DNA from: Escherichia coli
Lineage (GTDB): Bacteria > Pseudomonadota > Gammaproteobacteria > Enterobacterales > Enterobacteriaceae
Length of the DNA: 64,000 nucleotides
NCBI RefSeq assembly: GCF_003790525.1
Contig: NZ_CP033635.1
Direction: 5' to 3' (one strand)
Made by a program: the position numbers and the translations under genes
The notes under the pieces: model-generated
The model's database searches: none
Seen by the model: the letters and a program-made list of their open reading frames with translations, nothing else
What the model was told of the DNA's origin: nothing
Shown here: positions 7,022-64,000 of the stretch, piece by piece
Layout of the letters: each line of letters begins with the position of its first letter
Numbering within the stretch: position 1 is the first letter of the stretch

Positions 7022-7029
7022 ACGTAATT

Positions 7030-7070
7030 GCCGGATGCGACGCACGAGTGTTACGCATGTCGCATCCGGC
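7030..7070. repeat. REP-like palindrome (gccggatgcgac ... gtcgcatccggc) between recD and argA
   Basis: Perfect 12-bp inverted repeat with GCCGGATGCGRCG core typical of enterobacterial REP elements. Confidence 0.55.
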
Positions 7071-7082
7071 GATTTTCATCGC

Positions 7083-8414: not shown

Positions 8415-8645
8415 GGCACACCTCTTTGCATGATTATTCGAAATTATTGTATTTTTATTCTGTTTTTTCGCAGGGTGCAAGTGTAAATTTTATGCGGGAG
8501 CGACTTTTTTATCAGTAATACCGTGAATATAAAAAGAATGTTTACCGTTTTATAGATGACAGATTATGCGTCTTTCGCTAAAGTTTCCGGTCAAATTGGT
8601 CGTTTACTTGTTACACAGCTTAGATTTCTTTTGCTCGGGAGAGGC

Positions 8646-9899: not shown

Positions 9900-9931
9900 T
9901 GTTTTTATTTATTCAATGAATTTATATTTCG

Positions 9932-9959
9932 TTGAATAGATAACATTTACCTGAATATT
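9932..9959 (+). promoter_or_regulatory. Putative sigma70 promoter of the PTS island operon (-35 TTGAAT, -10 AATATT, 16-bp spacer)
   Basis: Hexamer match read by eye in the AT-rich region upstream of the RAT/terminator leader; weak evidence. Confidence 0.25.
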
Positions 9960-9996
9960 AGACGCTGGTTTTGTGACTGATGTCGGATATTTGAAT

Positions 9997-10019
9997 GTCG
10001 GCTTGAAAAATAAGCCGAC
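9997..10019 (+). terminator. Hairpin gtcggctt-gaaaaat-aagccgac downstream of amiC (possible amiC terminator)
   Basis: 8-bp perfect stem seen in sequence; no strong U-tract follows. Confidence 0.3.
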
Positions 10020-10071
10020 CATCTCTTTAATTAAGCACAATTCCGTGTAATGTATACGCATTAGTTAATCA

Positions 10072-10099
10072 TCTTGTAACTGTTAAATCAGGCAAGGCA
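10072..10099 (+). promoter_or_regulatory. RAT-like element (ribonucleic antiterminator target) overlapping the 5' arm of the leader terminator
   Basis: cttgtaactgttaaatcaggcaaggca resembles the BglG/SacY RAT consensus as I recall it (TTGTTACTG..AAAGCAGGCAA); overlaps the terminator stem directly upstream of a PRD antiterminator gene. Confidence 0.5.
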
Positions 10100-10145
10100 A
10101 TGTTTGAAGTAATCATTACTTCTGACGTGCCTTGCCTTTTTTTTT
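10090..10145 (+). terminator. Rho-independent terminator in operon leader (10-bp stem aggcaaggca/tgccttgcct with inner stem gaagtaat/attacttc, then T9)
   Basis: Perfect inverted repeat followed by 9 T residues, ending 11 nt before the antiterminator ATG. Confidence 0.6.
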
Positions 10146-10156
10146 GGAGCCATGAA

Positions 10157-10981
10157 ATGATCATCGAAAAAGTCATGAACAATAATTGTGTACAGGCATC
10201 GATGAATGGACAGGAGGTTATCATTTCTGGGCCTGGCGTCGGTTACAACAAAAAATATGGAATGTCGGTCCCTGAGCATCCGGCTAACCGGATTTTTTAT
10301 GTCAGAAATGAACAAAAAAATAAACTCTACAAATTGATTGAACATGTGGATATTGAGTATGTTTTTGTTGCCGAAAAAATAGTGCAATATGCGGAGAACA
10401 ATCTCGAAAAAAATCTCAATCCATCGCTACTATTGATTCTTGCTGATCACATTTCGAATGCAATATCCCGAGTCGCTTCAGGCATACAAATTAATAATGT
10501 TTTCCTTGATGAAATCAAAGCGTTGTACAAAGCAGAGTATGCGATAAGTCGCGATGCATTAACTATCATTAATGAGCAATTCAGCGTTCAACTTCCTGAT
10601 GATGAGATTGGTTTTATAGCATTGCATATTTTAAATAATTATGAAAATTCAGTTGATTATGAATCAGTACGGATTATTGAGTTGTCGCAAATAATCACGG
10701 GGCTTATTGAAGTTGTTTATAACAGAAAGGTGGACAGAAGTTCATTTAATTATTCCAGGTTCATGATACACCTTAAATATTTTTCAAGTCGCGTATTATG
10801 TAATGAAAAGATAAAACAAAAAGATATTGGTGACATCTATGAGCAGTTTCTTGAGAAAGACATCCTGTTACAGCGCGCAATTCATGAAATTGAACGGTAT
10901 CTGTATGCCACTTTTAAATATGAATTAATTTTAGAAGAAAAACTATATCTCTCAATTCGTACCAAAGTATTAATGGACTAA
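10157..10981 (+). CDS. BglG/LicT-family PRD-domain transcription antiterminator
   Basis: 275 aa from ATG 10157 (MIIEKVMNNNCV..., GGAG 7 nt upstream); N-terminal CAT RNA-binding motif KVxNNN and PRD-like segments; the ORF-track start 10100 lies inside the terminator hairpin. Confidence 0.8.
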   Translation: MIIEKVMNNNCVQASMNGQEVIISGPGVGYNKKYGMSVPEHPANRIFYVRNEQKNKLYKLIEHVDIEYVFVAEKIVQYAENNLEKNLNPSLLLILADHISNAISRVASGIQINNVFLDEIKALYKAEYAISRDALTIINEQFSVQLPDDEIGFIALHILNNYENSVDYESVRIIELSQIITGLIEVVYNRKVDRSSFNYSRFMIHLKYFSSRVLCNEKIKQKDIGDIYEQFLEKDILLQRAIHEIERYLYATFKYELILEEKLYLSIRTKVLMD

Positions 10982-11012
10982 TTATATATAACATTTATAT
11001 GAGATAACCCAC

Positions 11013-12593
11013 ATGAAACAAAAGAAAGCCTGGAGTTTTTTTCAGAGCCTGGGAAAGGCATTCATGTATCCCATTGCTCTGCTAAGTGTATGTGGCATGA
11101 TGCTAGGGCTGGGAAGTGGTTTAGCCAGTGATGATATGGCAAAGTTAATTCCATTTCTGGCTATTCCAATAATTAAAACCATACTTGATTTCATTGTTAG
11201 TCTTGGTTTGTTTGCCTTTGTTAATTTACCTGTATTGTTTGCGATAGCGATTCCCTTAGGATTATTAAAAGATAAAGAGGATAAAGCCTATGGTGCTTTT
11301 TCTGGCTTAATTGGTTTTATGGCGATGCATCTGGGAACGAACTTTTATCTTAAACAGCACGACTTATTGGTCGCTGCTGACCAAATGTCGACACATGGGC
11401 AAACCATCATTCTGGGGATCCAGTCCTACAATACCAGCGTGTTAGGGGGAATTGTTGCTGGGTTATTAGTCGCCAGCATGTATAAAAAGATCGTTAATTT
11501 ACGCATTCCTGAATCATTAGGTTTTTATAGCGGCCCACGTCTGGTGCCTATCATTACACTGATTGTGATGAGTGGATTTGGTCTGATCATCCCTTTTATC
11601 TGGCCGCCGTTTTTCAATCTTTTCATGCTCATTGGCCACTGGATTTCAACTTCCGGTCCTGTTGGCTATTTTTTCTATGCAGTCGCCGAACGCGTGACGA
11701 TACCTTTTGGTTTAAATCACCTGGTGACGTCAGTTTTCCGCTTTACCCCCATCGGCGGATCGGCAGTGATCGGCGGCGAAGAGTATTATGGCACCCTGAA
11801 CATGTTTATGGCGTACGTCAAAGAGAATGCGGTCATTCCGCTGGATTTGGCGGGGAAAATGGAACAGGGCAAACTGATGATTCAGTATGGTCTGGCTGGT
11901 GCCGCGCTGGCGATGTATCGCACTGCTCATGCTCAAAACAGAAAAGCTATCAAAGCATTGCTTATTTCCGGGGTGCTTACAGTCATTATTGGCGGCGTCA
12001 GCGAACCGATTGAGTTTCTGTTCTTATTTGTCAGTCCACTGCTGTTTGTCTTCCATGCATTTATGAATGGATTCGCCAACATGGTCTTGCCATATATGGG
12101 CGTGAAGATGGGATTTACTGGCGATCTGATTCAATTTATTAGCTTTGGCGTATTGCGTGGCACAAGAACAGGTTGGCCAATAGCGGTGTGTGTCGAAGTG
12201 GCCTATTTCTTTATTTATTACTTTGTGTTCCGTTGGACTATTCTCAAATTTAACCTGATGACGGTAGGCCGTGAAGAGTCCAGTCCTGTCACGCTGAACG
12301 CTCATGAGGATACGGCTATAGCGGATATCCCAACTCCTGATAAATCAGAGCTGCAAGCGGCGGAGCAGATGGTTAAGGCACTTGGTGGTAAAGAGAATAT
12401 TAAGTCACTGGATAATTGCGTAACTCGTTTACGTTTAACAATCGCAGATATGGGATTGCTTGACGAGGCTGCAATAAAAAGAGCCGGCGGAATTGCGGTT
12501 GTTAAACTTGATCAAAATACCCTACAAGTCATTATCGGTACTAAAGTCATCGCCTTGCGTCGGGATATGGATAACTACATGGGGATATGCTGA
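11013..12593 (+). CDS. PTS glucose/glucoside-family EIICB permease (no EIIA domain)
   Basis: 526 aa polytopic membrane protein with C-terminal EIIB motif NCVTRLRL; similar in architecture to MalX/PtsG-type EIICB. Confidence 0.85.
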   Translation: MKQKKAWSFFQSLGKAFMYPIALLSVCGMMLGLGSGLASDDMAKLIPFLAIPIIKTILDFIVSLGLFAFVNLPVLFAIAIPLGLLKDKEDKAYGAFSGLIGFMAMHLGTNFYLKQHDLLVAADQMSTHGQTIILGIQSYNTSVLGGIVAGLLVASMYKKIVNLRIPESLGFYSGPRLVPIITLIVMSGFGLIIPFIWPPFFNLFMLIGHWISTSGPVGYFFYAVAERVTIPFGLNHLVTSVFRFTPIGGSAVIGGEEYYGTLNMFMAYVKENAVIPLDLAGKMEQGKLMIQYGLAGAALAMYRTAHAQNRKAIKALLISGVLTVIIGGVSEPIEFLFLFVSPLLFVFHAFMNGFANMVLPYMGVKMGFTGDLIQFISFGVLRGTRTGWPIAVCVEVAYFFIYYFVFRWTILKFNLMTVGREESSPVTLNAHEDTAIADIPTPDKSELQAAEQMVKALGGKENIKSLDNCVTRLRLTIADMGLLDEAAIKRAGGIAVVKLDQNTLQVIIGTKVIALRRDMDNYMGIC

Positions 12594-13768
12594 TGGATGT
12601 TTTTAATACTCCTATTTCCCGCAAAGGAACATATTGTACCCAATGGGACTTTTGCGAGGACAGATTTGGTGTAAAAGATGTATTACCATTCTCTATTTCA
12701 GATATGGATCTTCCGATACCAGACGCTATCACCAGAGCATTAAAAAAACGTCTGGAACACCCGATTTTAGGGTACAGCCGTTGGCAGCATGATGACTATC
12801 TGAATGCGATAGTCAATTGGTATCATCAACAATATAAAACTGAAATCAAACCAGAATGGATCACCTATAGCCCAAGCGTGATGTACTCCATTGCTAAAGC
12901 AATAGAGTTATTGACATCGCATGGTGATAATATTCTCGTTTTTACACCTGTCTATAATGCATTTTTTGATATAATTAAACATAGCGAGAGAAATATTCTG
13001 ACAGCCTCTTTGATTATAAAAAATGAGGGGGGCTACGCTATCAATTGGCAAGATTTTGATCTTAAGATTCAAAGCGCAAAGATGGTGTTATTATGTAATC
13101 CTCATAACCCGACAGGAACAGTCTGGTCGGAAGAAGAACTGCATAAAATCGCTGCAAGCTGTACAAGGCATAATGTCTGGTTATGTTCAGATGAAATCCA
13201 TAGTGATTTTGTTTTTAATCGTAGCTTTACATCCGCGCTTAAAATAAAAAAAGAAAAAGTAGTAGTATTTAACTCGATATCGAAAACATTTAATGTTCCT
13301 GCACTAACAGGATCGTATATGATTTCAACTGACGATAATTTTAATCATAAGTTCAGAACGATATCGAGGTATCGCGATTTTGTAAACTCCCCATCAGTAC
13401 TGAATATAATTGCAACTATTATTGCCTATAACGAATGTGAGGGATGGTTAAAGTCATTAAAGGCACATATTGCCTCTAACATTCAATTCACCCAGCAGTA
13501 TCTGAACGAAAACACTCCAGAATTGATCGTAAGGCCAGCTGATGGTTGCTATTTTTCGTGGATAGATTGCTCTGCTATTGGTTATCCCTTTGATGAATTC
13601 TACAGTCGATTAATTCATGAAGGCAAAGTGGGCATTATGGCGGGGAATGTCTATGGAACGGAGGGGGAGGGCTACCTTCGTCTGAACCTGGCCTGCGGTC
13701 GAGAAAAATTATATATGGGGCTTACGCGTCTTGCGAGTGTAATTAAAAATATTAATCAAGGAAAATAA
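12587..13768 (+). CDS. MalY/PatB-family PLP-dependent aminotransferase / C-S beta-lyase
   Basis: 393 aa; N-terminus (TYCTQWDF..LPFSISDMDLP) parallels E. coli MalY (GTWCTQWDY..LPFTISDMDF); overlaps the EIICB stop by 7 nt. Confidence 0.8.
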   Translation: MLMDVFNTPISRKGTYCTQWDFCEDRFGVKDVLPFSISDMDLPIPDAITRALKKRLEHPILGYSRWQHDDYLNAIVNWYHQQYKTEIKPEWITYSPSVMYSIAKAIELLTSHGDNILVFTPVYNAFFDIIKHSERNILTASLIIKNEGGYAINWQDFDLKIQSAKMVLLCNPHNPTGTVWSEEELHKIAASCTRHNVWLCSDEIHSDFVFNRSFTSALKIKKEKVVVFNSISKTFNVPALTGSYMISTDDNFNHKFRTISRYRDFVNSPSVLNIIATIIAYNECEGWLKSLKAHIASNIQFTQQYLNENTPELIVRPADGCYFSWIDCSAIGYPFDEFYSRLIHEGKVGIMAGNVYGTEGEGYLRLNLACGREKLYMGLTRLASVIKNINQGK

Positions 13769-13770
13769 AA

Positions 13771-14367
13771 ATGAACAGCACGGATCTTATCCATCTCATT
13801 AAACATTTTATGCGTAACGAACATAAAGCAGTTGAAGAAGTTATTGATTCCCCCCTTTCGGAGGTCGCAAATTTAATTAAAGTATTACAGTCTTGTCAGG
13901 GGAAAGTTGTTTTTATTGGTGTCGGTAAGTCCGGTATTATTGCCCGAAAACTCGCCGCAACATTTGCCAGCACTGGAACTCCCTCGTTTTTTGTTCACGG
14001 TACGGAAGCGGTACACGGCGACCTTGGAATGGTGGCGAAAGACGATGTTGTTATTCTTATTTCAAACAGTGGTGAGACGGCGGAAATCCTGGCGACACTG
14101 CCTAGTCTGAAAAAAATGGGTAATTATTTGATCTCTTTTACACGCAGTCATCACTCATCGCTTGCGATAAGTTGTGATTTATCCGTTGAAATTCCCGTAA
14201 AAAGTGAGGCGGATAATTTAGGTTTAGCGCCGTCATGCTCATCAACAGTCGTTCTGGTTGTTGGTGATGCGGTGGCGCTTGCGCTCTCCGAATTGAAAAA
14301 GTTTACTCGTGCTGATTTCGGCTTATATCATCCAGGAGGTGCGCTCGGTATTAAAGCAAACTCATAA
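13771..14367 (+). CDS. SIS-domain sugar-phosphate isomerase (single SIS domain, KdsD/GutQ-like)
   Basis: 198 aa with GVGKSGIIARKLAATFASTGTPSFFVH, the SIS phosphosugar-binding motif. Confidence 0.75.
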   Translation: MNSTDLIHLIKHFMRNEHKAVEEVIDSPLSEVANLIKVLQSCQGKVVFIGVGKSGIIARKLAATFASTGTPSFFVHGTEAVHGDLGMVAKDDVVILISNSGETAEILATLPSLKKMGNYLISFTRSHHSSLAISCDLSVEIPVKSEADNLGLAPSCSSTVVLVVGDAVALALSELKKFTRADFGLYHPGGALGIKANS

Positions 14368-14429
14368 TTTCAAAATATAAATACAGTAACCGGTCACGCC
14401 ATCTTTTGGGGTGGCGTTCTTTGAAGTGA

Positions 14430-15386
14430 GTGTCAGCTATGAAAAATGTTCTGGTCACCGTCCCCAGCTTTTCAGCACGCTGTGTTTCCGCCAGCAAGTT
14501 GCTAAGAGAGAATAATTTTAATCTTATTATTAAGAATAATGTGGAGCATCTGCTTAAATCAGAATCCACTGCATTACGAGAATCTATTTGCGCGGTCATC
14601 GCCGGAAAAGATTGTTATCAGGCGGACACGCTATCATTGCTGTCTGGTGTGAAAATAATATCGAGATTCGGGACGGGGATAGACAATATTGATCTTCGTG
14701 CGGCACAGCAATCCGGTATTGTTGTCAATAATGCGGTTGGGATTAATTCAAATGCGGTTGCGGAATTTATCATTGGACTTATCTTCGCGAGCATGAGAAA
14801 TATCCCCGGTAGCTATCATGCGATGCAAAATGGTTATTGGGGCGAGTCGCATGGCTGCGAGTTACAAGGTAAACGTATTGGCCTGCTTGGCTACGGCAAT
14901 ATTGGCAAAACACTGGCGAAAAGGTTATCTGGTTTTGATGTTGAGCTTTTAGCTTTTGACAAACAACCCGATTTCCAGGCCGCAGGCAAAGATGGAGTTC
15001 AGTTCGTATCAATTGAAGATATCTTTATGCAGTCTCATGTCATCATCGTTCTTTTGCCATTTTCTCCGGAGCTGGAGAACTTCATTAGTCATAAATATTT
15101 GTCGATGATGCGCAATGGTGCTCTGATCATCAACGCCGCAAGGGGAAAGTTGCTGGATGAGGGTGCTTTACTTCAGGTAATTGAAGAACGAAATGTTTTT
15201 GCAGCACTGGATGTGTTTAGCTCTGAACCGCTAGCGCAATTTAGCCCATTGCTACATGCCAAGAATATCATTACAACGCCGCATATTGCGGCCGCCACCG
15301 TTGAGTCATACCAGCAAACCGGGATATACGTTGCCCAGTCGATAATTGATTACTTCGCAGGAAGGGAGATAAAAAACGTGCTGTGA
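14430..15386 (+). CDS. D-isomer-specific 2-hydroxyacid dehydrogenase family protein (NAD-binding)
   Basis: 318 aa; Rossmann GxGxxG (LLGYGNIGK) and catalytic-domain motifs typical of the SerA/PdxB/GhrA family. Confidence 0.75.
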   Translation: MSAMKNVLVTVPSFSARCVSASKLLRENNFNLIIKNNVEHLLKSESTALRESICAVIAGKDCYQADTLSLLSGVKIISRFGTGIDNIDLRAAQQSGIVVNNAVGINSNAVAEFIIGLIFASMRNIPGSYHAMQNGYWGESHGCELQGKRIGLLGYGNIGKTLAKRLSGFDVELLAFDKQPDFQAAGKDGVQFVSIEDIFMQSHVIIVLLPFSPELENFISHKYLSMMRNGALIINAARGKLLDEGALLQVIEERNVFAALDVFSSEPLAQFSPLLHAKNIITTPHIAAATVESYQQTGIYVAQSIIDYFAGREIKNVL

Positions 15387-15410
15387 GTTCAGCTAAGGAA
15401 TATTTCAGGT

Positions 15411-15448
15411 ACAAAAAAACCGCAATTTGTGAAACACATTGCGGTTTA
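15411..15448 (-). terminator. Rho-independent terminator downstream of the tRNA-fMet cluster
   Basis: On the minus strand a hairpin accgcaatgtgtttcacaaattgcggt followed by TTTTTTT, directly 3' of the last tRNA. Confidence 0.6.
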
Positions 15449-15464
15449 TCAGCATCATAAGTGT

Positions 15465-15541
<77 letters not shown>

Positions 15542-15575
15542 TCACCGTACTGCTTTTACTTCATCAAATTTTGAT

Positions 15576-15652
<77 letters not shown>

Positions 15653-15685
15653 TCACCGTACTGCTTTACTTCATCAAATTTTAAT

Positions 15686-15762
<77 letters not shown>

Positions 15763-15970
15763 TCCGTGGATGCGCACTATACTCTGCTCGCGTTTTCATG
15801 CAACCTTTTTTTTACCCCGATCACGGATTTGGCATGATTTTGAACAAAAACAAATCACTAAAGCCTATTTTTTGTGCAAAATTTGCGTCGGGGAGAGGCT
15901 GCTCATTTCATTAAACGCGGCGGTTTGTTATCTTCGTTGCGCCTTATTTTTTAACCTGAAGAAGAGAACA

Positions 15971-17068
15971 ATGAAAGGACGTTGGGTAAAGTACCTTCTT
16001 ATGGGCACGGTTGTGGCAATGCTTGCCGCCTGCTCTTCCAAACCAACCGATCGCGGACAGCAATATAAAGACGGGAAATTTACCCAGCCTTTCTCTCTGG
16101 TGAACCAGCCAGATGCCGTTGGCGCGCCGATTAACGCCGGTGATTTTGCCGAGCAAATTAACCATATCCGTAATTCGTCACCGCGTCTGTATGGCAACCA
16201 GAGTAATGTTTATAACGCGGTGCAAGAGTGGCTGCGCGCAGGCGGTGATACCCGCAATATGCGCCAGTTCGGCATTGATGCCTGGCAGATGGAAGGTGCC
16301 GACAACTATGGTAACGTGCAGTTTACCGGTTATTACACGCCAGTAATTCAGGCGCGCCATACCCGCCAGGGCGAGTTTCAGTATCCGATTTACCGTATGC
16401 CGCCAAAACGTGGTCGTCTGCCGTCTCGTGCGGAGATCTACGCGGGGGCATTGAGCGATAAATACATCCTCGCTTACAGCAACTCTCTGATGGATAACTT
16501 CATTATGGATGTGCAGGGTAGTGGGTATATCGACTTTGGTGATGGCAGTCCGCTTAACTTTTTCAGCTATGCAGGGAAAAACGGTCATGCCTATCGCAGC
16601 ATTGGTAAGGTGCTGATCGACCGTGGCGAAGTGAAAAAAGAAGATATGTCGATGCAGGCGATTCGTCACTGGGGTGAAACACACAGTGAAGCCGAGGTTC
16701 GCGAGCTGCTGGAACAGAACCCGTCTTTCGTCTTCTTTAAACCGCAATCTTTTGCTCCGGTGAAAGGGGCAAGTGCGGTGCCGCTGGTTGGTCGCGCTTC
16801 AGTTGCGTCCGATCGTTCCATTATCCCGCCTGGTACAACCTTACTGGCAGAAGTGCCGCTGCTGGATAATAACGGCAAATTTAACGGTCAGTACGAACTA
16901 CGGCTGATGGTGGCGTTGGATGTCGGTGGTGCAATCAAAGGCCAACACTTCGATATTTATCAAGGTATCGGGCCGGAAGCCGGACACCGCGCAGGTTGGT
17001 ACAACCACTATGGACGTGTTTGGGTGCTGAAAACCGCCCCGGGCGCAGGTAACGTCTTTAGCGGCTGA
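15971..17068 (+). CDS. mltA: Membrane-bound lytic murein transglycosylase A (lipoprotein)
   Basis: 365 aa from MKGRWVKYLLMGTVVAMLAACSSK (lipobox LAAC); the ORF-track version starts at a TTG inside the tRNA and is rejected. Confidence 0.9.
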   Translation: MKGRWVKYLLMGTVVAMLAACSSKPTDRGQQYKDGKFTQPFSLVNQPDAVGAPINAGDFAEQINHIRNSSPRLYGNQSNVYNAVQEWLRAGGDTRNMRQFGIDAWQMEGADNYGNVQFTGYYTPVIQARHTRQGEFQYPIYRMPPKRGRLPSRAEIYAGALSDKYILAYSNSLMDNFIMDVQGSGYIDFGDGSPLNFFSYAGKNGHAYRSIGKVLIDRGEVKKEDMSMQAIRHWGETHSEAEVRELLEQNPSFVFFKPQSFAPVKGASAVPLVGRASVASDRSIIPPGTTLLAEVPLLDNNGKFNGQYELRLMVALDVGGAIKGQHFDIYQGIGPEAGHRAGWYNHYGRVWVLKTAPGAGNVFSG

Positions 17069-17144
17069 TGTGTTATTCTGTATACCGTTTTGACGGATAC
17101 GACAGGGTGAGGGATAACCTCGCCCTTTTTAATTCTGAGGTGCT

Positions 17145-17951
17145 ATGTCTGTGGTAATTAGTGATGCATGGCGTCAGCGTTTTGGTGGCACAGCGCGTCT
17201 GTATGGTGAAAAAGCATTGCAACTGTTTGCTGACGCGCATATTTGTGTGGTTGGTATCGGTGGTGTCGGTTCCTGGGCGGCGGAAGCGCTGGCGCGCACG
17301 GGGATTGGCTCAATCACGCTTATCGATATGGATGATGTGTGCGTCACCAATACCAATCGGCAAATTCATGCCCTGCGCGATAACGTTGGGCTGGCAAAAG
17401 CGGAAGTTATGGCGGAGCGTATTCGCCAGATTAACCCGGAGTGCCGTGTAACGGTGGTGGATGATTTCGTGACGCCGGATAACGTAGCGCAGTATATGAG
17501 CGTGGGTTATTCGTACGTGATTGATGCCATTGATAGTGTACGGCCCAAAGCGGCGCTGATTGCTTATTGTCGGCGCAATAAAATCCCACTGGTCACAACC
17601 GGTGGCGCGGGTGGGCAGATTGACCCGACGCAGATTCAGGTTACCGATCTGGCGAAAACGATTCAGGACCCGCTGGCGGCGAAGTTGCGTGAGCGCCTGA
17701 AAAGCGATTTTGGCATAGTGAAAAACAGTAAAGGTAAGCTCGGCGTGGATTGCGTGTTCTCTACCGAAGCGCTGGTGTACCCGCAGTCAGATGGCACGGT
17801 CTGTGCAATGAAAGCTACGGCGGAAGGGCCAAAGCGGATGGATTGTGCATCTGGATTTGGTGCCGCGACGATGGTGACCGCCACCTTTGGTTTTGTTGCG
17901 GTTTCTCATGCGCTGAAGAAGATGATGGCGAAAGCGGCGCGTCAGGGGTAA
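17145..17951 (+). CDS. tcdA: tRNA threonylcarbamoyladenosine dehydratase (ThiF/MoeB-like E1 fold)
   Basis: 268 aa, GxGGVGS nucleotide-binding motif; synteny with csdAE. Confidence 0.85.
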   Translation: MSVVISDAWRQRFGGTARLYGEKALQLFADAHICVVGIGGVGSWAAEALARTGIGSITLIDMDDVCVTNTNRQIHALRDNVGLAKAEVMAERIRQINPECRVTVVDDFVTPDNVAQYMSVGYSYVIDAIDSVRPKAALIAYCRRNKIPLVTTGGAGGQIDPTQIQVTDLAKTIQDPLAAKLRERLKSDFGIVKNSKGKLGVDCVFSTEALVYPQSDGTVCAMKATAEGPKRMDCASGFGAATMVTATFGFVAVSHALKKMMAKAARQG

Positions 17952-18001
17952 ACAATCAGGTCGGATGCGACGCAAACGTCCTTTCCGACCCGGTTCTGTG
18001 C

Positions 18002-18445
18002 TTAAACCTGCTTCGCCGCAGCGATAATCGCCTCGCTTAACGCATTCAACCCCTGGCTGCGTGAGGCGCTAAGTTGCGCACGCAATCCCAGCTCATCAAA
18101 CAATGCCAGCGGCGACTGTGCCTGCAATTCGGCGGCGGTTTTGCCCTCAACGGCAGTCAACAACACCGCAAGCAGGCCGCGCACAATGCGTCCTTCGCTG
18201 TCGCCAAAGAAATGCATCTTGCCGTTTTCAGCCATGGTATATCCCAGCCAGACGCGGTTTTCGCATCCGGCAATCTCTTTAGCCTGCGCTTTTAACTCGT
18301 CTGGCAAAGCCGGCAGCTGTTTCCCCAGCATGATCAACTGGCGATATTTATCTTCCCATTGCGACAACGGTGCGAAGGTATTGCGTAACGTTTCTGCGGT
18401 TACGGTTGTGCCGAACGGATGTCCGGCGAATTGCGGGTTCGTCAT
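18002..18445 (-). CDS. csdE: Sulfur acceptor protein CsdE (SufE-like)
   Basis: 147 aa SufE-family ORF immediately downstream of csdA. Confidence 0.85.
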
Positions 18446-19650
18446 TAATCCACCAATAATTCCAGCGCGCGGTCAACGGCATTCACCAGCGCATCCACAT
18501 CACTCTTTGTATTATATGGCGCAAAAGAGGCGCGCAGTGTGCCGGTTACGCCTAATTCTGCCAGTAGCGGCTGAGCGCAATGCTGCCCGGCCCGCAGGGC
18601 AATACCGTACTCCGCCAGCAGTGTCACCATATCGCTGTGATGAACTCCAGCAAAATCAAAGGCCAGCAGGCTGGAATCCTGGCAGCGGAATGAACGAAAG
18701 CCTGGACGTTTCGCCAGCGCTTCTTCTGCAAGCGTTGCTAAGCTACGGCTCCAGCTTTCGGCCTGGTTGATATCGTAATCTGTCAGCCATTCCAGCGCCG
18801 CGCTTAATCCTATGACGCCAGCGACATTTGGCGTTCCTGCTTCCAGTTTCCACGGCGCAGATTGAGTCGTGAAGCCGTCAAAACTCACTTCGTGAACCAT
18901 TTTGCCGCCGCCCAGCCAGGGCGACATCGCTTCCAGCAGTTCTGGTTTGCCATACAGCACGCCGATGCCTGTCGGGCCATACAGTTTGTGACCTGAAAAA
19001 GCATAGAAATCAATATCCAGTTGCTGAACATCCGCGGGGAAATGCACCGCCCCCTGAGCACCATCAACCATCACCACCATCCCGGCTGAATGAGCAAAAG
19101 TAATCGCTCTCGCCAGATCCGGGCAACCGCCAGTGACGTTCGACATCTGGCCCAACGCCAGAATCCGACTACGGGGAGTAATCAGTTCTGGCAACAAATC
19201 GACATCCGGCAGTCGCTGCGCATTAAGCGGCAATTTCACCACTTTGGCCCCCGTTTGTTGGGCGACCATCAGCCAGGGGACGAGGTTGGCGTGGTGTTCT
19301 GCCACACTGACAATAATTTCATCGCCCGGTTGCAGACGCGGACGCGCATAGCATTGTGCCACCATGTTGATGGATTCAGTGGTGCCGCGCGTCCAGACGA
19401 TAGTTTTATCATCCGGTGCATTCAGTAATTGTGCCACTTTTTCCCGCGCAGCTTCGTAACGCGCGGTCAGGCGTTGGGCTTCGGCAAACTGGCTGCGATG
19501 GACGTTTCCGGCGCTCAGGCTATAAAACTGTCGGGTGGCTTCAACCACGGCTTCAGGTTTAAGCGCGGTCGCGGCGCTGTCGAGATAGACGCCCGCATCC
19601 TGTAGCGCGGGAAACTGGGCGCGAAACTGCGCGGGATTAAAAACGTTCAT
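18445..19650 (-). CDS. csdA: Cysteine desulfurase / sulfinate desulfinase CsdA
   Basis: 401 aa from [13 protein letters not shown]; PLP-dependent class V aminotransferase motifs ([10 protein letters not shown]). Confidence 0.9.
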
Positions 19651-19841
19651 GGTACTCCTCGGCTTGATGCACCGATCGTGACGCAAAATTCACTTTGATA
19701 CAAGGAGAGTGCTAACCATCAGAATTATCTGGATATCCTGGCGAAGCCGCGTCAGTAACATATGCTGAATAGTGTTAGGCGTTAATTTTAGCCTGTTAAT
19801 CAATACTATTAAGATTTATTAATCGCTTTAAGGAGAAGATG

Positions 19842-20069
19842 ATGAAAAAGACTGCCGCAATTATTTCTGCCTGTATGCTGACTTTTGCCCTGAGCGCCTG
19901 TTCCGGTTCGAACTATGTGATGCACACCAATGACGGACGTACCATCGTCTCTGACGGCAAACCACAGACTGATAACGATACCGGTATGATTTCGTATAAA
20001 GACGCTAATGGCAACAAACAGCAGATCAACCGTACTGACGTGAAAGAGATGGTCGAACTGGATCAGTAA
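19842..20069 (+). CDS. ygdI: Small DUF903 lipoprotein
   Basis: 75 aa, signal peptide with lipobox LSAC. Confidence 0.75.
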
Positions 20070-53354: not shown

Positions 53355-55007
<1,653 letters not shown>

Positions 55008-55078
55008 GAAAAAAGTTAGAACGGCAACGCGTACCCTGGGTACGCGTTGTTTGTCTGGAGTTTCAGTTTAACTAGTGA

Positions 55079-56392
<1,314 letters not shown>

Positions 56393-56419
56393 GTCTGACT
56401 TTATCTGATTTAAAAATGC

Positions 56420-56433
56420 CAGCCTTCGGGCTG
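56420..56433. repeat. Left copy of IS4 target-site duplication (cagccttcgggctg)
   Basis: Identical 14-mer directly flanks both ends of the IS; the two copies reconstruct a perfect hairpin aaaaatgccagccttcgggctggcatttttt. Confidence 0.8.
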
Positions 56434-57859
56434 TAATGCCAGTCAGTTAAGCAACTGACTGGCTCTTTTTCGGGGCTGTGGGGTATTTCCAGGGCCTCTC
56501 CTTTACCACTCTCGGGAAGGCCCTTTCCCTTCTTGTCGGTAATTTCACAAGTTGTCCCATACTTGCAAGATCGCGCATCAGCTCCGGTATACGTCCCGGT
56601 GAAGCGCCCTGCAATGTCATCAGCATTCTCATCACCATTCCACATGATTCTGAGAAACTCAGTTGATTCGGCCAGTAACCTTTCAGATATTCCGCCATTT
56701 TAATCATCTGATATCTCACCAGATTATAAGCCAGTAAGACACCCCACAGCTCTTGCTCCACAAGCTCCGGTTTTTTACTTCTCAGCGTCAGCCTGCTCAG
56801 TTGCATCGTCTGTTTTATCTCCCTGTATCCCAGTTCGATTTCCCAGCGATGACTGTACAGATCCGCCATTTCTCCTCCGGGGAAGCGCATGGCGTCCGTC
56901 ATCGACGTCAGCAGATGGCAGACTTTTCCTTTGCGCGTCACGGTCAGCAGGCGGGCTGTCACTTCATTTCCCAGTCCCGGCCACTTTTTTCGTGCCTGCG
57001 GGCTGGTTTTCAGCTTCACCAGATGATCGCCTTTACCCAGTTTTCTGATCTCTTCATATTGCGCTCCCTTTCTGAGAGGTATCATCCAGTGGCGGTGTTC
57101 TCCCGCCAGGCTCCAGGCATTTAACAGTCCCAGTGAGTAATAACCTTTATCCATTAACGTCAGAGTGTTATCGCCGGTTTGTTCTATAAGTTGCTCAGCA
57201 AGCTCATTTTCGCTGTTCTTCATCGTGCCGAAGGCTGCAGCCGTCAGCAGATGGCTGGTCAGTTCCATCTGGCAGACCATTTTGACCTGCGGGTAGAGCG
57301 CCGGGTTCCCGGCATGTGTCTGGCGGGGGAAGGCTGCATCGTTCTCTGGTGTATCCGGTGTGCGCCAGAACACACCATCGATGGCCAGCAGGGTCAGGCC
57401 GCACCAGTGCGGATGCGGCGTGGCGTTATGCCAGAGCTGCGCTGTTTTCGTGAACACGCGGCGGACAGCCTCACTTCCCAGGCGCTGGCGGGCCTGAATA
57501 ACGGCACTGGGGGCAACGAAGGGGCGATTGCCCGGCAGCATGATGTCCAGGCGATTCACAATCTGGTGAAGAGGTTCTTTACGCTCAAGCGCCATGCCAA
57601 CAATACACCAGACCATCATTTCGAGGGGAAGACGGCGCTTGCGTAGCGTTACAGTACCTGATTCGGCAAGGCAACGAGAGATGAGTTCGGGGTCGAGGTA
57701 ATCCCCCAGAGAAGTCAGTGGGTTACGCAGAGAATCGTAACGGGATACCAGATCAAGAGCCTGTCCAATGTGCATAAAAAAATCCGGAAACAAGTGAGCG
57801 TTTCCGGATTCTTACACAGCCACTGGATCGGTCAACTGATCCTTAACTGATCGGCATTA
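56434..57859 (-). mobile_element. IS4 insertion sequence (1426 bp) with imperfect 18-bp terminal inverted repeats
   Basis: Ends taatgccagtcagttaag ... cttaactgatcggcatta (16/18 complementary); encodes an IS4-family DDE transposase; flanked by a 14-bp direct repeat. Confidence 0.9.
56447..57775 (-). CDS. insG: IS4 transposase
   Basis: 442 aa from [31 protein letters not shown], which I recognise as the IS4 transposase N-terminus. Confidence 0.9.
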
Positions 57860-57873
57860 CAGCCTTCGGGCTG
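57860..57873. repeat. Right copy of IS4 target-site duplication (cagccttcgggctg)
   Basis: See left copy. Confidence 0.8.
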
Positions 57874-57891
57874 GCATTTTTTATGGCTGAG

Positions 57892-58764
57892 TTACCAGCG
57901 GCCAGACGCGCCGCCACCGCCAGAAGAACCGCCACCTCCGTTAAATCCGCCGCCAGTTGAGCCGCCACCAGAACCGCCGCTGTCTGAATGATAACTTCTA
58001 CCTGATGCTTTTTTCTGTGGGACACATAACCAGGTAAAGACCATAATGATGGTGAAAGCAAAAAAGAAGGAAAATACAGCAATGGAAAAAGTTTGATCGG
58101 AGAACAGGAATAAATCTATAAGATAGACTGTTGAAATACAAACACTGCTTTTAAATGCCCGACAAAAATTATTGCCTTGATGAAAAAACCAGAAAGGGAA
58201 GAACATCACTGCAAATACCCAAAAAATAGCAAAGTAGTAATGATCACTGGAAGACGCTGATTCACTTTCTGAAGGATTAGACGAATATTGGTGTTGTGAA
58301 GTGAGTTGGTTATTCAAAGCGATTATAGCTAATTCTAATCCCTTAGCTAATTTTTGTTTTTTAAAGGCGGGTATCATGATGCTACGGATGATATTGCCAG
58401 CCAGAGCATCGGTTACCTTTTCTTCCAGCCCATAACCTACCTGGATGCGGACAGTACGATCCGACCAGGCAACAATGATCAGTATCCCATCATTACGTTT
58501 GGCATCTCCTAAACGCCAATTGTCAAAAACTCTTGTAGCATATTGTTCAATAGAATCGTCTCCGGTGGATGGCACTATTAATACAGCGACCTGTGCCCGT
58601 GTTTTTTGTGTAATATCCTGCAGCTGTTGTGTTAGTGATTGTTGTTCAGACGTGCTTAAGGTACCAGTAATATCGGTCACCTGTTGGCGCAGCTCCGGCA
58701 CAGCAATTTGCTGGGCAAGCACAGGAAGGCACCATAAAGTGAGTAGAAAAAGGATTATACGCAT
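57892..58764 (-). CDS. ygcG: TPM-domain membrane protein, YgcG-like (signal peptide, TPM domain, TM segments, Gly/Ser-rich C-terminal tail ending GRW)
   Basis: 290 aa from ATG 58764 ([17 protein letters not shown]); length as recalled for K-12 YgcG; the ORF-track start 4 codons upstream is a TTG and is rejected. Confidence 0.75.
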
Positions 58765-58769
58765 AACGA

Positions 58770-59918
58770 TCACCAACGGTCGGATGAACCGCCGCCTCCT
58801 GAAGAACCGCCGCCACCGCGGAAAGAATTTTTCGACGAAGAGCGAGAATGAGCATTACGATTCCCCGTTTTCCTGTTGCTTTTTTCTCCTGACCCCAGCT
58901 TAAGATTGCCAGTAAATTTGGCCACAATGATCAGCAGAACGATGCCAGCAATGGTTATTGGGCCGATAAAATGATCAATTAACCCAATAATTGTTGAGAT
59001 GAATGCTATATCTTTATTACTGGCGAATACCAGGCACCATCCCACAACAATTATCAGCAGCACGACAAACAATGAGTTTCGTTCGGATTGAGAAACCTGC
59101 TGAGTCGTCTTTTGTTTTTTCACTTTAGCGTTTTTATTTTTTGGGGCCAGCATCATAGGAAATACGCGATACATATGAAAAATTACCGCGAGACGCTGCC
59201 AGCAGGTTGCTGCGAAAAATAAACTAAAACAAACGAGCGATACCCGCCGAATGATGACATCATCCTGAAAGAAGAAAAACCAGACCATAGGAGTAATCAT
59301 CGATATCATCCATATGCCAGGCCCGGGACGGCTGGTAAATCGCCAGAGGACAACGATGGCAACGATCATCAGTAATGTCCAGGCAAGACATGGCAGCGAG
59401 CGTTGCGGATTAGCAAACAGATGATTGGCTAAAGCATCCAAAGGGCTAAGATTCGCTTTTATATAGGTAAACTGTGCGATGCCTTCAATTCCCTGCGTTA
59501 ACCCGGAGAAGAGATTATTTTTTTTGAATTCCGGTTGCATATGGTAATGAACAATTTGCGCAGCTTGTTCCGGTGGCAGCATCTCTTTCAGTCCATGCCC
59601 AATCTTCATTGACGCCAGCCCTTCCGGCCAAACGACGAGAATTAAGATACCTTCGCCGTACCGCTTCTCTCCAACGGGTTTCCAGTGATATAACCCGTAG
59701 CTCTGAGAGGCTGCAAGTTTAATGTTTTTGCCCCCTGTGGTCGGCGTAACCAACACGGCCACCTGGAAGTGGTTTTGCTGCTCGAGAGTCTGTAATTGTT
59801 GATTTAAAGCAGTTTGTTCTTCTGTCGTTAATGTCCCGGTTAAGTCAGTTACTGAAGGCAATTGTTCAGCGAATGCCTGGAAACCATATAGCATCAGAAG
59901 TAAGAGAAAAATACGCAT
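58770..59918 (-). CDS. TPM-domain membrane protein, paralogue 2 (extended multi-TM region, Gly-rich tail ending DRW)
   Basis: 382 aa; signal peptide [20 protein letters not shown]-like core ([20 protein letters not shown]), tail [15 protein letters not shown]; AAGGA RBS; 5 nt upstream of ygcG-like gene. Confidence 0.75.
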
Positions 59919-59932
59919 TTCAATTCCTTTTG

Positions 59933-60826
59933 TTACCAGCGCCCGGAGGCGCCACCGCCGCCAGATGAACCGCCGCCGCCGCGGAAATTGTCATTGTCGA
60001 ATGAAGAGGATGACGATGACGAATAGTGGGAGGAAGAATTACTTCTTGTATGGCGTGATGGCTGGTTGGTATTACGCATCGAATCCCGAACCTTTTTGCC
60101 GAAGGGAGTAAAAGCGATGGCGACAGCCAGGAACGGTGTGGCGAAGCAGAGTAATGTTGCGAGCACTCCCCAGCTTCCGCTGAAACCTGCTATAGGTAAA
60201 ACAAAGGCCAGTACAATAGCTGCGAAGCAAATCAGTCCCAGCGTTTTGATATATCCTCTGGCAGAAATAAACGTCAGTATTATCGCCCAGACTAACAAAG
60301 CCCACCAACCGCTAAAGGGCAAAGGGTGATCGGTCGGTGTTATCGTTGCTGAATTATTCCCCGTCAGGCGACTTTCAATATCGTTGATCCCCTTTTGTAA
60401 ACCACCAGCCAGGTCGCCTTTTTTAAATGCCGGAATAATACTGTTGCGAATAATTTTCCCGGACTGTACATCCGTAATAATACCTTCCAGTCCGTAACCG
60501 ATTTCAATACGCACGGTATGATCCTGCCAGGCGACTAACAGTAGAACGCCATCATCGCGGTCTTTATCACCCGGTTTCCAGCTATCGAATACCCGCGTTG
60601 CGTACTGCTCGATGGTTTCATCGCCTGTTGTATCAACCACTAACACGACCAACTGTGCGTGGTTTTTTTGCGTCAGGGCTTTAATCTGGTTGGTCAGGGT
60701 GTTTACTTCGCTGTTTGTTAATGTGCCGGTTAAGTCATTCACATACTTGGGGGATTCAGGTACTGGAATTTGTGTGGCAAACACAGATGAACAGAAGAAA
60801 GCCATAAGGAAGATAAAATTTCGCAT
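59933..60826 (-). CDS. TPM-domain membrane protein, paralogue 1 (Ser-rich + Gly-rich tail ending GRW)
   Basis: 297 aa from ATG 60826 (MRNFIFLMAFFCSSVFA); TPM-like core (LTGTL..QLVVLVV..IEIGYGLEGI); tail [15 protein letters not shown]; 13 nt after the lemA stop. Confidence 0.75.
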   Translation of the reverse strand: MRNFIFLMAFFCSSVFATQIPVPESPKYVNDLTGTLTNSEVNTLTNQIKALTQKNHAQLVVLVVDTTGDETIEQYATRVFDSWKPGDKDRDDGVLLLVAWQDHTVRIEIGYGLEGIITDVQSGKIIRNSIIPAFKKGDLAGGLQKGINDIESRLTGNNSATITPTDHPLPFSGWWALLVWAIILTFISARGYIKTLGLICFAAIVLAFVLPIAGFSGSWGVLATLLCFATPFLAVAIAFTPFGKKVRDSMRNTNQPSRHTRSNSSSHYSSSSSSSFDNDNFRGGGGSSGGGGASGRW

Positions 60827-60839
60827 AGAACTTCCCCGC

Positions 60840-61442
60840 TTAATGCGCATTAGCATTCTGGCTAAAATCTATTGTTGGGGCTTTACTTACTGCGGTGACA
60901 TCATCCGGCAAATAATTTTTCTTTGGTGTGTAATCCATGACCTTTGCGGTTAATACAGCGGGGAATTTGCGGATAGTGACATTATATTGTTCAATGGCTT
61001 TAATATATCTTCCTCGCGCAACGGCAATTCTATTTTCACTTCCTTCGAGCTGTACCATTAAGTTTTGATAGAGTTCCTGAGCTTTTAACTCAGGGTAACG
61101 TTCACTAATTATCGTTAACTGACCGAGAGTGCGAGACACCTGCGCCTGGGCTTGTTGCCAGGCTTGTAATTTTTGCGCATCTCCCGGAGCTTGCTGAAGA
61201 TCGCTACTGGCGCGATTAGCCTGGCTACGTGCCAATGTTACGGCTTCCAGTACCTCTTGTTCATGGCTAGAATAACCTTTAATACTGGCGACAAGATTAG
61301 GAATAAGATCGGCGCGACGTTGATATTGATTCAATACCTCAGACCAGGAGGCGTTAACCTGCTCATCATAGGTTTGAATATCGTTATATCCACAGCCTGA
61401 TAAATTGACAATAAATATAATTACGATGAATATCCTGAGCAT
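60840..61442 (-). CDS. LemA-family protein (probable lipoprotein, lipobox LSGC)
   Basis: 200 aa; N-terminal hydrophobic segment with Cys at position 17 in an LSGC lipobox; coiled-coil-rich LemA-like body; first gene of the 4-gene minus-strand cluster. Confidence 0.7.
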   Translation of the reverse strand: MLRIFIVIIFIVNLSGCGYNDIQTYDEQVNASWSEVLNQYQRRADLIPNLVASIKGYSSHEQEVLEAVTLARSQANRASSDLQQAPGDAQKLQAWQQAQAQVSRTLGQLTIISERYPELKAQELYQNLMVQLEGSENRIAVARGRYIKAIEQYNVTIRKFPAVLTAKVMDYTPKKNYLPDDVTAVSKAPTIDFSQNANAH

Positions 61443-62371: not shown

Positions 62372-63379
62372 TTATCGGTAGCGTTTTTGTAGACTGGCAG
62401 GAAGATAACGCTGTAATGGGGATGGCGTTTCACCTTCAATCAGTTGCGAAATAAGTTCAAAGCAGTGAAAAGCAAGTTGGCGATTATCCTGTTGTATTGT
62501 GTCGATTCTTACCGAAAGTGAATCATACAAGTAATGATCATCAAAACTCGCCAGGTGGATTTTACTGTCGAGTAAATTATATTGGCTCATATAGCGCAGA
62601 ACGCCTTCCAGTAATCCACAAGCGGCAGTGAATAAGGCTTTAGGGGGACGTCCTAAACGAGCGCATAGCGCGGCAAACATTTCATAGCCTGAGCTCGGAT
62701 GATAATTACCGTGAATAATCCATTCAGGTTGTAGCGTTACTCCGGCTTGCTGCAAGCCTTGTGTAAATCCTTCCAGTCGATCGCGAGTCGGTGACAAACG
62801 GGGTTGTCCGCCCAGAAAATAGAATTCATCCGGGTGACTCCGTGCAATATCTGCCACCAGAGCGGCGGTGGGAGAAACAGAGTCAGTAATGACCAATGGC
62901 AATGTGCTGCCGTTCATGTGGCGATCGAACAACACAACAGGTAATTGCTCGCTAAGTTTTTGATAGTCATTATCATGCAGCATACTGGATGCGACGATTA
63001 ACCCATCAACCTGGCGGGCAATCATATTGTTCACCACCATTGTTTCCTGTGAAGGATTTTCATCAGTACAGGATATGAGGAGTTGGACTCCCGCTTCCCG
63101 ACACAATGTTTCCAGTTCATGGGAAAATACTGCAAATCCGTAGTTAGTGATTTCAGGAACGACGAGACCAATGGTGTGACTGCGGTTGTCCCGTAATGAG
63201 CGGGCATGAATGCTGGGCTGATAATGCTGCTGTTGGGCAATACTCAGCACACGCTCACGCGTTTCCTGCGCAACACGTAACTCTTTGCCACGACCATTGA
63301 GAACCAGACTGGCGGTTGCTTTCGACACTCCCGCCAGTTCAGCAATGTCTTTAATAGTAACGCGTTTGGTTTTTCTCAC
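62372..63379 (-). CDS. LacI-family transcriptional repressor, sucrose-operon type (CscR/ScrR-like)
   Basis: 335 aa; N-terminal [26 protein letters not shown] resembles Cra/ScrR-type LacI regulators; immediately downstream of a GH32 hydrolase gene in the same direction. Confidence 0.7.
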
Positions 63380-63404
63380 GACGAGGATCCGTAATTCAAA
63401 ACCC

Positions 63405-64000
63405 TCATTCTACCATGCAGGCGCGTAGCGACCAGTAGTGTAACGTGACGTCAGACTCGCCCTGTAATATCAGCGAAGCTGGATGATGGGGAAAATAACG
63501 ATTGCTCATTACGCCTTCGCCATTATTGATGAATATCTCTATGCTGGAACTGTCACAGAGAATCTTCAGTGACGTTACGCTTCCTCGCCAGTAACGAGTT
63601 AGTTTCTCTTGCCCTGCAAGGCTTTTCCTCTGTAGTTGAATACCATCGTCATTAAGATGCAGTGCCAGTGCGTTGCCAAAATTCAGATGTAGCTCGCCTG
63701 ATGGAATGATGTCCATTTCCAGACGTTCAATTGCGACAGGCGGCGCATGATCCGCTTTTCCTTGCCAGAAGTGTTCAGCTTCACGCAGTTGCGCGAGTTC
63801 CCTGATTGGCATCTGAAATAATTTTCCCTTCTGGAATGAGAGTTCGCGAAAACAGGTCATTTGATGCTGCCAATGATGCTTTCTGGTTGGTTGCAACATC
63901 TCTTCGCCATCAGGAACCCCCATCCAGCCGACCAGTAATCGTCGCCCGTCCGGGGCTTCCATCGTCTGTGGTGCATAGAATTCAAATCCCGCATCCAGCT
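63405..64000 (-). CDS. Glycoside hydrolase family 32 (sucrose-6-phosphate hydrolase/invertase-like), C-terminal part; gene continues past the window edge
   Basis: Reading frame stays open to the window edge (..[27 protein letters not shown]..); C-terminal region resembles the beta-sandwich domain of sucrose hydrolases. Confidence 0.6.

Follow-up and report, generated by a model that had tools for sequence, protein, structure and literature searches.

IS4 of Escherichia coli K-12 was reportedly described in 1981, and the target duplication that it generates is usually quoted as 11-13 bp. Its target is said to be the pseudo-palindrome AAA-N20-TTT, a consensus reportedly drawn in 1984 from insertions in the galT hot spot and in the pheS,T attenuator, and quoted, again by report, by ISfinder and in 1998. 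Other mobile elements also meet terminators or incoming transcription: group IIC introns home next to intrinsic terminators, and IS10 and IS50 are said to be protected from transcription that starts outside the element, as reportedly found in 1985.

Among the relatives of IS4, the family member IS231A uses as target a GC dyad flanked by bent AT-rich DNA, according to the passage of PMC2266710 that cites Hallet et al. (1994). As in the IS4 targets described here, a symmetric GC-rich core of about one helical turn is duplicated and A/T-rich arms flank it; however, element, host and consensus are different, and the best IS231A target is a transposon end, not a terminator. The insertion sequences IS1397, ISKpn1, IS621 and ISRm22 target REP/BIME palindromes (PMC1525189). 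Together with the group IIC introns they resemble IS4 in that intergenic palindromes serve as harmless, repeatedly occupied landing sites, but their chemistries and motifs are others, and it is the terminator hairpin itself that IS4 splits. Our literature search on IS4 in combination with terminator or palindromic targets, or with eno/ygcG, returned nothing specific. A mutation-accumulation study reports eight new IS4 insertions, four of them non-coding, and PMC11708052 mentions IS4 only as a family name.

Here we describe an IS4 copy in a stretch of 64,000 nucleotides of E. coli DNA (hereafter the window), inserted between eno and a convergent ygcG-like gene. Compared with the K-12 element (the insG copy), it has the same 1426 bp, the same 18-bp ends (16/18 matching) and a 442-aa transposase; only the location differs, with a duplication of 14 bp at eno and of 12 bp at the K-12 site, the latter lying within AAA-N20-TTT. 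With respect to the quoted consensus, the eno site is exactly AAA-N20-TTT, the attenuator is likewise an intrinsic terminator, and the conserved arms are reproduced by 86 sites. What departs from it is a spacer of 18-21 bp and not a fixed 20, a duplication range of 11-14 instead of 11-13 bp, and a cut offset of 3 bp. This is a known element in a known kind of target, and the target consensus is old knowledge; the dependence of the duplication on the spacer and the proposed exchange of terminators may not have been stated before. Our main reading, to which we assign a probability of roughly 0.87, is that an intact, classical IS4 entered a preferred target by ordinary transposition, that this target is a recurrent hot spot, and that the insertion is ancestral in the clade to which the window belongs.

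Results

An intact IS4 between eno and the ygcG-like gene

The element is intact and occupies positions 56434-57859 of the window, on the minus strand. It differs from the K-12 IS4 (NC_000913.3 4502090-4503515) at 6 of 1426 nucleotides, which corresponds to 99.6% nucleotide identity, and is 100% identical to the copy of E. coli SMS-3-5. Its terminal inverted repeats are TAATGCCAGTCAGTTAAG at the transposase-stop end (IRR in the ISfinder orientation; 56434-56451, plus strand) and TAATGCCGATCAGTTAAG at the transposase-start end (IRL; 57842-57859, minus strand), with 16 of the 18 positions matching. No other matches to the IS4 terminal 18-mer than these two occur in the window, and the chance expectation for such a pair is 0.03.

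The transposase is encoded by a single, uninterrupted open reading frame without frameshift (56447-57775, minus strand; 442 aa from the ATG, with a TTG start at 57793 annotated by PGAP). Three residues differ from K-12 InsG, and exactly this protein carries the Pfam domains PF13006 (Nterm_IS4) and PF01609 (DDE_Tnp_1). Length and ends, near-identity to the K-12 copy, transposase domains, target duplication and target type all identify the element as IS4, which belongs to the IS4 subgroup of the IS4 family. The original prediction, a 1426-bp IS4 with 16/18-bp repeats whose transposase points toward eno, was thus correct in both respects, the reading frame lying on the minus strand and eno on the plus strand. 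A promoter-like match at the start end (57835-57808) belongs to a class of which four were found and 3.4 were expected from shuffled sequences, that is, no excess.

The interrupted site has the structure of a bidirectional terminator

The eno (enolase) gene, whose 3' end the targeted terminator would serve, spans 55094-56392 on the plus strand, according to its open reading frame and to the RefSeq annotation of the identical SMS-3-5 stretch. Convergent with it, the ygcG-like TPM-domain gene (57892-58764, minus strand; annotation, and PF04536 on the homologous product) is the last of the LemA/TPM operon. Between them, the element is flanked by two copies of a 14-bp target-site duplication, CAGCCTTCGGGCTG, at 56420-56433, where a residual 5-bp hairpin is kept, and at 57860-57873. 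Re-inspection of both copies bore out their reported identity, and 14 bp is their maximal extent, since the adjacent outer bases are not the same (C/A at the left edge, T/G at the right). Beyond the duplication lie two arms that are not duplicated. The left arm, AAAAATGC (56412-56419), consists of the A-tract plus 3 bp, and its AAA falls at -20 to -18 from the IS end, where the IS4 flank profile peaks. The right arm, GCATTTTT (57874-57881), consists of 3 bp and then five bases of the T-tract, the opening part of a six-T run that ends at 57882.

Removal of IS4 and of one repeat copy rebuilds the 31-mer AAAAATGCCAGCCTTCGGGCTGGCATTTTTT, in structure a perfect bidirectional terminator, placed between the convergent genes, 19 nt past the eno stop codon and about 10 nt past the stop codon of the ygcG-like gene. 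Its fold is an 8-bp GC-rich stem that carries a UUCG loop and is lengthened by A:U pairs; the energy is -20.7 kcal/mol on one strand (z -3.4) and -20.3 kcal/mol on the other (z -6.2). The uninterrupted site is found in other strains: LF82 carries exactly AAAAATGCCAGCCTTCGGGCTGGCATTTTTT, and in K-12 BW2952 the site is the same but for a TCCG loop. The rebuilt site, intact in LF82, supports the earlier claim that IS4 splits the hairpin of a bidirectional terminator shared by eno and the ygcG-like gene. An Rfam scan of 55000-59000 at E up to 1 returned no family. The cuts fall 3 bp inside each tract of the AAA-N20-TTT site, and the duplication measures 14 bp because the spacer between the A- and T-tracts is 20 bp.

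The insertion is fixed in the SMS-3-5 clade

Over the 2.5 kb around the element, the window and E. coli SMS-3-5 agree at 100% identity. IS4 sits at the same nucleotide position in 157 (2.9%) of 5426 complete E. coli genomes, in 76 of them in the orientation of the window and in 81 in the opposite one, the latter counted in the same genome set with a synthetic query in which the IS was flipped. As a clade marker we used 20 kb of the window (positions 1-20000), located 36-56 kb away from the IS. At about 100.0% identity, this marker groups 25 complete genomes into one clade, and the closest genome outside it reaches 98.5%. The identical insertion is present in 24 of the 25 (SMS-3-5 and 23 other complete genomes), whose sources, in several countries, are humans, chickens, dogs, a pangolin and river water.

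The 25th genome, elppa5, has no IS4 at this position and carries a different allele of the whole eno region, in which ygcG-yqcG-queE-CRISPR replaces the LemA/TPM operon and the sucrose genes, and the mazF and mazG proteins are others. Its site has a broken A-tract, the natural variant TGATAATGCC. We conclude that elppa5 lost the IS4 site by recombinational replacement, not by excision.

Empty sites were searched with two queries, of 1061 nt and 400 nt, which gave 4134 and 4115 full-length hits; the frequency at the site is stated here as the occupied count (157). None of the empty-site genomes matched the window flanks above 99.2% (1061 nt) or 99.5% (400 nt). In many more genomes the alignment covers just 74-75% of the query, crossing the junction into a divergent ygcG, and CRE10 represents a third allele of the site, with other DNA after eno.

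Given that 24 of the 25 clade genomes share the identical insertion, that the region was replaced in elppa5 and that empty sites are absent from close relatives, we regard the insertion as ancestral to the SMS-3-5 clade and fixed in it.

The same position has been hit repeatedly

Junctions were compared at 15 occupied loci from different lineages, and every duplication has as its first base the same C, the one that follows AAAAATGC. The loci nevertheless differ in orientation, in the length of the duplication and in the loop allele. In the orientation of the window, a 14-bp duplication is combined with a TTCG loop in SMS-3-5, Rb-50, MS 21-1 and others, and with a TCCG loop in M15, and a 13-bp duplication with TTCG in the O25:H4 strain CU568-3. 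In the opposite orientation, 14 bp is combined with TTCG in CE10 and AR_0077 and with TCCG in 2018-10-1CC and strain 582, and 13 bp with TCCG in AMSCJX02 and KFu024. Each loop allele is identical in both duplication copies, and both alleles, TTCG and TCCG, are also found at uninterrupted sites, from which it follows that the loops differed before each insertion took place. The IS4 copies themselves differ by up to 11 nt between classes.

Because orientation, repeat length and loop allele give at least six combinations, these junctions point to several independent hits: at least six separate IS4 insertions at the eno site, a figure that rests on the 15 sampled loci rather than on a tree of the 157 occupied genomes.

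The target arms and the IS ends together make up a 40-nt imperfect inverted repeat. Inversion across it was considered as a source of the opposite copies and rejected, the loop being unflipped in those genomes.

IS4 prefers spaced A- and T-tracts

Exact matches to the 29-nt IS4 end, sought in a single genome of each bacterial species, were obtained at 69 loci in Kosakonia, Buttiauxella, Budvicia, Silvania, Dryocola, Pectobacterium, Rosenbergiella and other genera. The 61 unique outside flanks of these loci from other Enterobacterales were compared with 5000 control positions. An A is present at -20, -19 and -18 in 48, 52 and 52 of the 61 flanks, respectively, C is dominant at -12 to -9, and G at -4 and -1. 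AAA occurs in the right zone in 56/61 flanks as opposed to 18.5% of the controls, a perfect hairpin of at least 4 bp ending at the junction in 36/61 (59%) as opposed to 7.3%, and the two together in 34/61 as opposed to 1.4%.

In E. coli, the look-up of three exact IS4 transposase variants gave 30 complete copies at 25 distinct targets. Most of these are bidirectional terminators between convergent genes, mostly perfect dyads, and include adhE/tdk, msyB side/mdoH, raiA/bamD, rpoD/mug, degS/mdh, aroA/ycaL, ssb/yjcB and bipA. About one quarter of the targets lie inside genes, without a good hairpin, and terminators are thus preferred but not required. The duplications measure 11 bp at two targets, 12 bp at nine, 13 bp at ten and 14 bp at four; the 14 bp found at eno, which had been taken as slightly longer than usual, possibly because of the palindrome, is within the range of the element. 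The duplication starts 3 bp past the A-tract in 15/25 sites and ends 3 bp before the T-tract in 19/25, the tracts being 18-21 bp apart. Subtracting 6 from the spacer gives the observed duplication at only 13 of 21 sites (Spearman 0.56, p 0.009). Several of the other targets are also occupied in differing orientations, duplication lengths or alleles, the repeatedly hit terminators besides eno being adhE/tdk, raiA/bamD and aroA/ycaL.

A half-site matrix trained solely on the non-E. coli flanks was then used to scan the window with the IS removed (312,495 configurations). The eno terminator obtained the single best score, and the start and length actually used rank 8th, about 4.6 SD above the mean. 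Insertion into a target made of an A-tract, a spacer and a T-tract is consistent with both the AAA-N20-TTT present at the site and its top matrix score in the window.

On the favoured reading, IS4 integrates by ordinary cut-and-paste transposition into a preferred kind of target, a roughly symmetric succession of A-tract, GC-rich dyad of about 18-21 bp and T-tract. In a genome, such targets are for the most part bidirectional intrinsic terminators, at the level of their DNA, where convergent genes meet. The staggered cuts are usually placed 3 bp inside the A-tract and the T-tract, leaving a duplication of about the spacer minus 6, so that the eno/ygcG terminator with its 20-bp spacer yields 14 bp and occasionally 13. 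Because its fit to the IS4 preference is so good, the eno site is a recurrent hot spot, hit independently and in both orientations in several E. coli lineages.

Hairpins at the IS4 ends may replace the terminator

After insertion, each side retains a 5-bp hairpin without a U-run in the reading direction of the adjacent gene. The original prediction that eno is left with a partial stem therefore holds for the remnant itself, but it overlooked the adjoining IS4 end, which is predicted to add an 11-bp hairpin followed by UCUUUUU. This inward-facing, stop-end hairpin (GCCAGTCAGTT-AAGC-AACTGACTGGC and then TCTTTTT; 56438-56470, plus strand), in RNA form GCCAGUCAGUU-AAGC-AACUGACUGGC, begins 5 nt past the remnant and, with its 11 pairs, outranks every other terminator-like site in 55000-59000. 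We predict that it replaces the lost terminator of eno, whose transcripts would end about 30 nt into the element, at the hairpin and its U-run.

A second inward hairpin, AAGAAUCCGGAAAC..GUUUCCGGAUUUUUUU followed by U7, lies at the start end just upstream of the transposase AUG (57776-57813, minus strand). It was found by folding, a simple terminator scan having missed it as its 14-bp stem absorbs the T-run. This structure is the predicted stop for transcripts entering from the ygcG-like gene, which would end about 85 nt into the element, before the transposase start codon. Its pairing is kept in six IS4 relatives, and two pairs show changes on both sides within this set of only six sequences. 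IS10 and IS50 likewise have a hairpin near the transposase start that forms only in transcripts from outside, the counterpart in IS4 being the predicted hairpin just described; however, the IS10 mechanism is translational occlusion, whereas termination is predicted for IS4.

On this model, both genes are probably still terminated after an insertion in either orientation, through the hairpins of the IS4 ends, and we infer that the insertion is nearly neutral. Restored termination would fit the observation that the two orientations are nearly equal in number (76 and 81) and that the element is tolerated beside eno. A more general proposal, which we put forward tentatively and at slightly less than even odds, is that IS4 is a specialist of bidirectional terminators, that cuts measured from the tracts set the length of the duplication (11-14 bp), and that one bidirectional terminator is swapped for two unidirectional ones, leaving the neighbours terminated.

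Alternative explanations

Two other histories of the insertion have to be weighed against a recurrent hot spot with ancestry in this clade. The original prediction was of a recent transposition private to the strain, which would have landed in the terminator by chance and left an aberrant 14-bp duplication on account of the palindrome. The identical repeat copies and the intact IS are what a young insertion would show, and only 3% of E. coli have IS4 at the site, but we find this history barely credible: inspection of the relatives revealed an insertion that is ancestral in the clade, present in identical form in 24/25 genomes of diverse hosts and, at the same site, in 157 of 5426 genomes overall, with no close relative that has an empty site. 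Moreover, 14-bp duplications recur at the eno site and at three other sites, and a chance landing is at odds with the eno terminator being the best predicted IS4 target in the window. At the other extreme, one ancient insertion might have reached the various lineages through descent combined with homologous exchange of the eno region, without any hot spot. The region does recombine, as the foreign allele of elppa5 testifies, and several lineages share orientation, 14-bp repeat and TTCG loop, with IS copies that differ by 1-2 nt. A single event is nonetheless very improbable in view of the two orientations, with the loop unflipped in both, which excludes inversion, of duplications of either 13 or 14 bp, and of the TTCG and TCCG loops, each in both repeat copies and each matching one of the two empty-site alleles. 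IS4 variants that differ by 10-11 nt between classes argue in the same direction, as do the repeated hits on the adhE/tdk, raiA/bamD and aroA/ycaL terminators.

The other two alternatives concern what makes the site attractive or advantageous. IS4 could recognise a cruciform or hairpin extruded from the terminator DNA and not the duplex with its A/T tracts and base preferences. The excess of perfect hairpins in the flanks (59% as opposed to 7% of controls) and the perfect dyads of most E. coli targets speak for this idea, which we consider doubtful: the K-12 site and six intragenic sites have A/T tracts with little or no dyad, the A-tract signal (56/61) exceeds the hairpin signal (36/61), and a two-fold symmetric transposase complex would produce a symmetric preference without any cruciform. 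The occupation of the eno site might instead reflect positive selection, if IS4 altered the expression of eno or of the LemA/TPM operon through antisense transcription from the transposase gene or through altered 3' ends. Consistent with selection, one clade in which the insertion is fixed is successful and widely dispersed, the eno site is the only place of IS4 found in some genomes, and, in the orientation of the window, just a weak 5-bp remnant hairpin followed by GCAUUUUU (-7.9 kcal/mol, z -0.67) separates the transposase gene from eno antisense. Against it, a directional transcriptional effect would not be expected to leave the two orientations about equal (76 and 81), target preference alone predicts the eno site as the best in the window, and both genes are predicted to regain termination from the IS ends; selection is in our judgement improbable.

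Implications

With transposition into a preferred terminator target as the favoured reading, an IS4 inside a terminator is expected and unremarkable in genome annotation. At the eno/ygcG position the element is homoplasic, with at least six origins and both orientations, and for this reason neither lineage nor recent change should be read from its presence alone. Specialists of insertion sequences gain a cleaner picture of the target, with tracts 18-21 bp apart, cuts 3 bp inside them and duplications of 11-14 bp. If the IS4 ends restore termination, as is suggested here, the tolerance of the element beside eno, an essential and highly expressed gene, would be explained. The more general proposal of a terminator specialist, if true, would amount to a 'safe-haven' strategy and would account for the repeated occupation of eno/ygcG, adhE/tdk, raiA/bamD, rpoD/mug and aroA/ycaL across Enterobacterales.

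Some by-products of the analysis are possibly useful to specialists, namely the hot-spot statistics, the 11-14 bp range with its 3-bp offset, and the conserved inward hairpins. Concerning the latter, the T-run after the stop-end hairpin is present in every variant listed among the 12 commonest tails of the 69 loci from other genera, and it also encodes Lys-Lys of the transposase.

Re-use of terminators by IS4 in E. coli

The eno terminator is not the only one re-used by IS4: across the E. coli assemblies (loci L086-L118), the element also occupies other terminators repeatedly. At the adhE|tdk and raiA|bamD terminators of these assemblies it is present in both orientations, and at the aroA|ycaL terminator it is found on two loop alleles. 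The length of the duplication varies within single sites of the same set, being 11 or 13 bp at the fieF|P2-ogr site and 12 or 13 bp at one within a gene for a TonB-dependent receptor. Intragenic sites make up about a quarter of all sites in these assemblies, in bcsG, benE, a yicI-like gene, an hsdS-like gene and a DUF4049 gene.

In some of the genomes matched by the query carrying the flipped element (H52, H56 and H69), IS4 was found at the eno terminator only, and PGAP labels the copy there insG. Not every genome, therefore, carries IS4 at the K-12-type resident site. The eno-site copies of CS5L (L006) and FXCREC043 (L010), which belong to different orientation classes, are 1428 bp long and carry a frameshift annotation; either a genuine mutation or a sequencing error in a homopolymer could account for this. 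One of the genomes occupied at the eno terminator (NZ_AP021894.1, L011) also has an IS1 that splits the adjoining ygcG gene (3694-4447 of that locus).

The clade member without IS4 at the eno site

The only member of the clade lacking IS4 at the eno terminator, elppa5 (NZ_CP083503.1; L097, L098), has a recombinant eno region. Its terminator A-tract reads TGATAATGCC in place of TAAAAATGCC, and this alteration makes the elppa5 terminator a naturally occurring variant of the target used by IS4. A Mu-like prophage with transposase, MuB-like ATPase, Gam and Mor genes is inserted in elppa5 at window position ~27 kb.

Alleles downstream of eno

The usual E. coli arrangement to the right of eno is ygcG-yqcG-queE followed by a CRISPR array, as seen in L098 and L084. 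SMS-3-5 carries a LemA gene and three TPM-domain genes, with a pseudogene among the latter (window ~60155-60826), then queE and sucrose-utilisation genes encoding a LacI-type regulator and a sucrose-6-phosphate hydrolase (window 58770-61442 and 62372-64000; 8871-14501 of its fetched locus, L001). In the third allele, from CRE10 (L084), a 363-nt hypothetical gene follows eno, and the bidirectional terminator there is a different one.

Between strains, the flank diverges most at window 57896-57981, where degenerate CCGCCACC-type repeats (five copies of a 23-nt unit, 67-83% identity) form the 3' end of the ygcG-like gene and encode, on the coding strand, the glycine-rich C-terminal tail of its product.

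The IS4 end outside Escherichia

A scan of genome contigs (loci L014-L082) found the exact 29-nt IS4 end to be widespread beyond Escherichia. Budvicia, Buttiauxella, Silvania and Dryocola contribute many loci, and the number reaches 16 in Kosakonia oryziphila. Further matches lie on a 1403-bp contig labelled as an Oscillospiraceae MAG (L051) and on a Chryseobacterium-labelled contig (L082); the latter and a Citrobacter contig (L071) have identical flanks. The Oscillospiraceae and Chryseobacterium occurrences are probably contamination.
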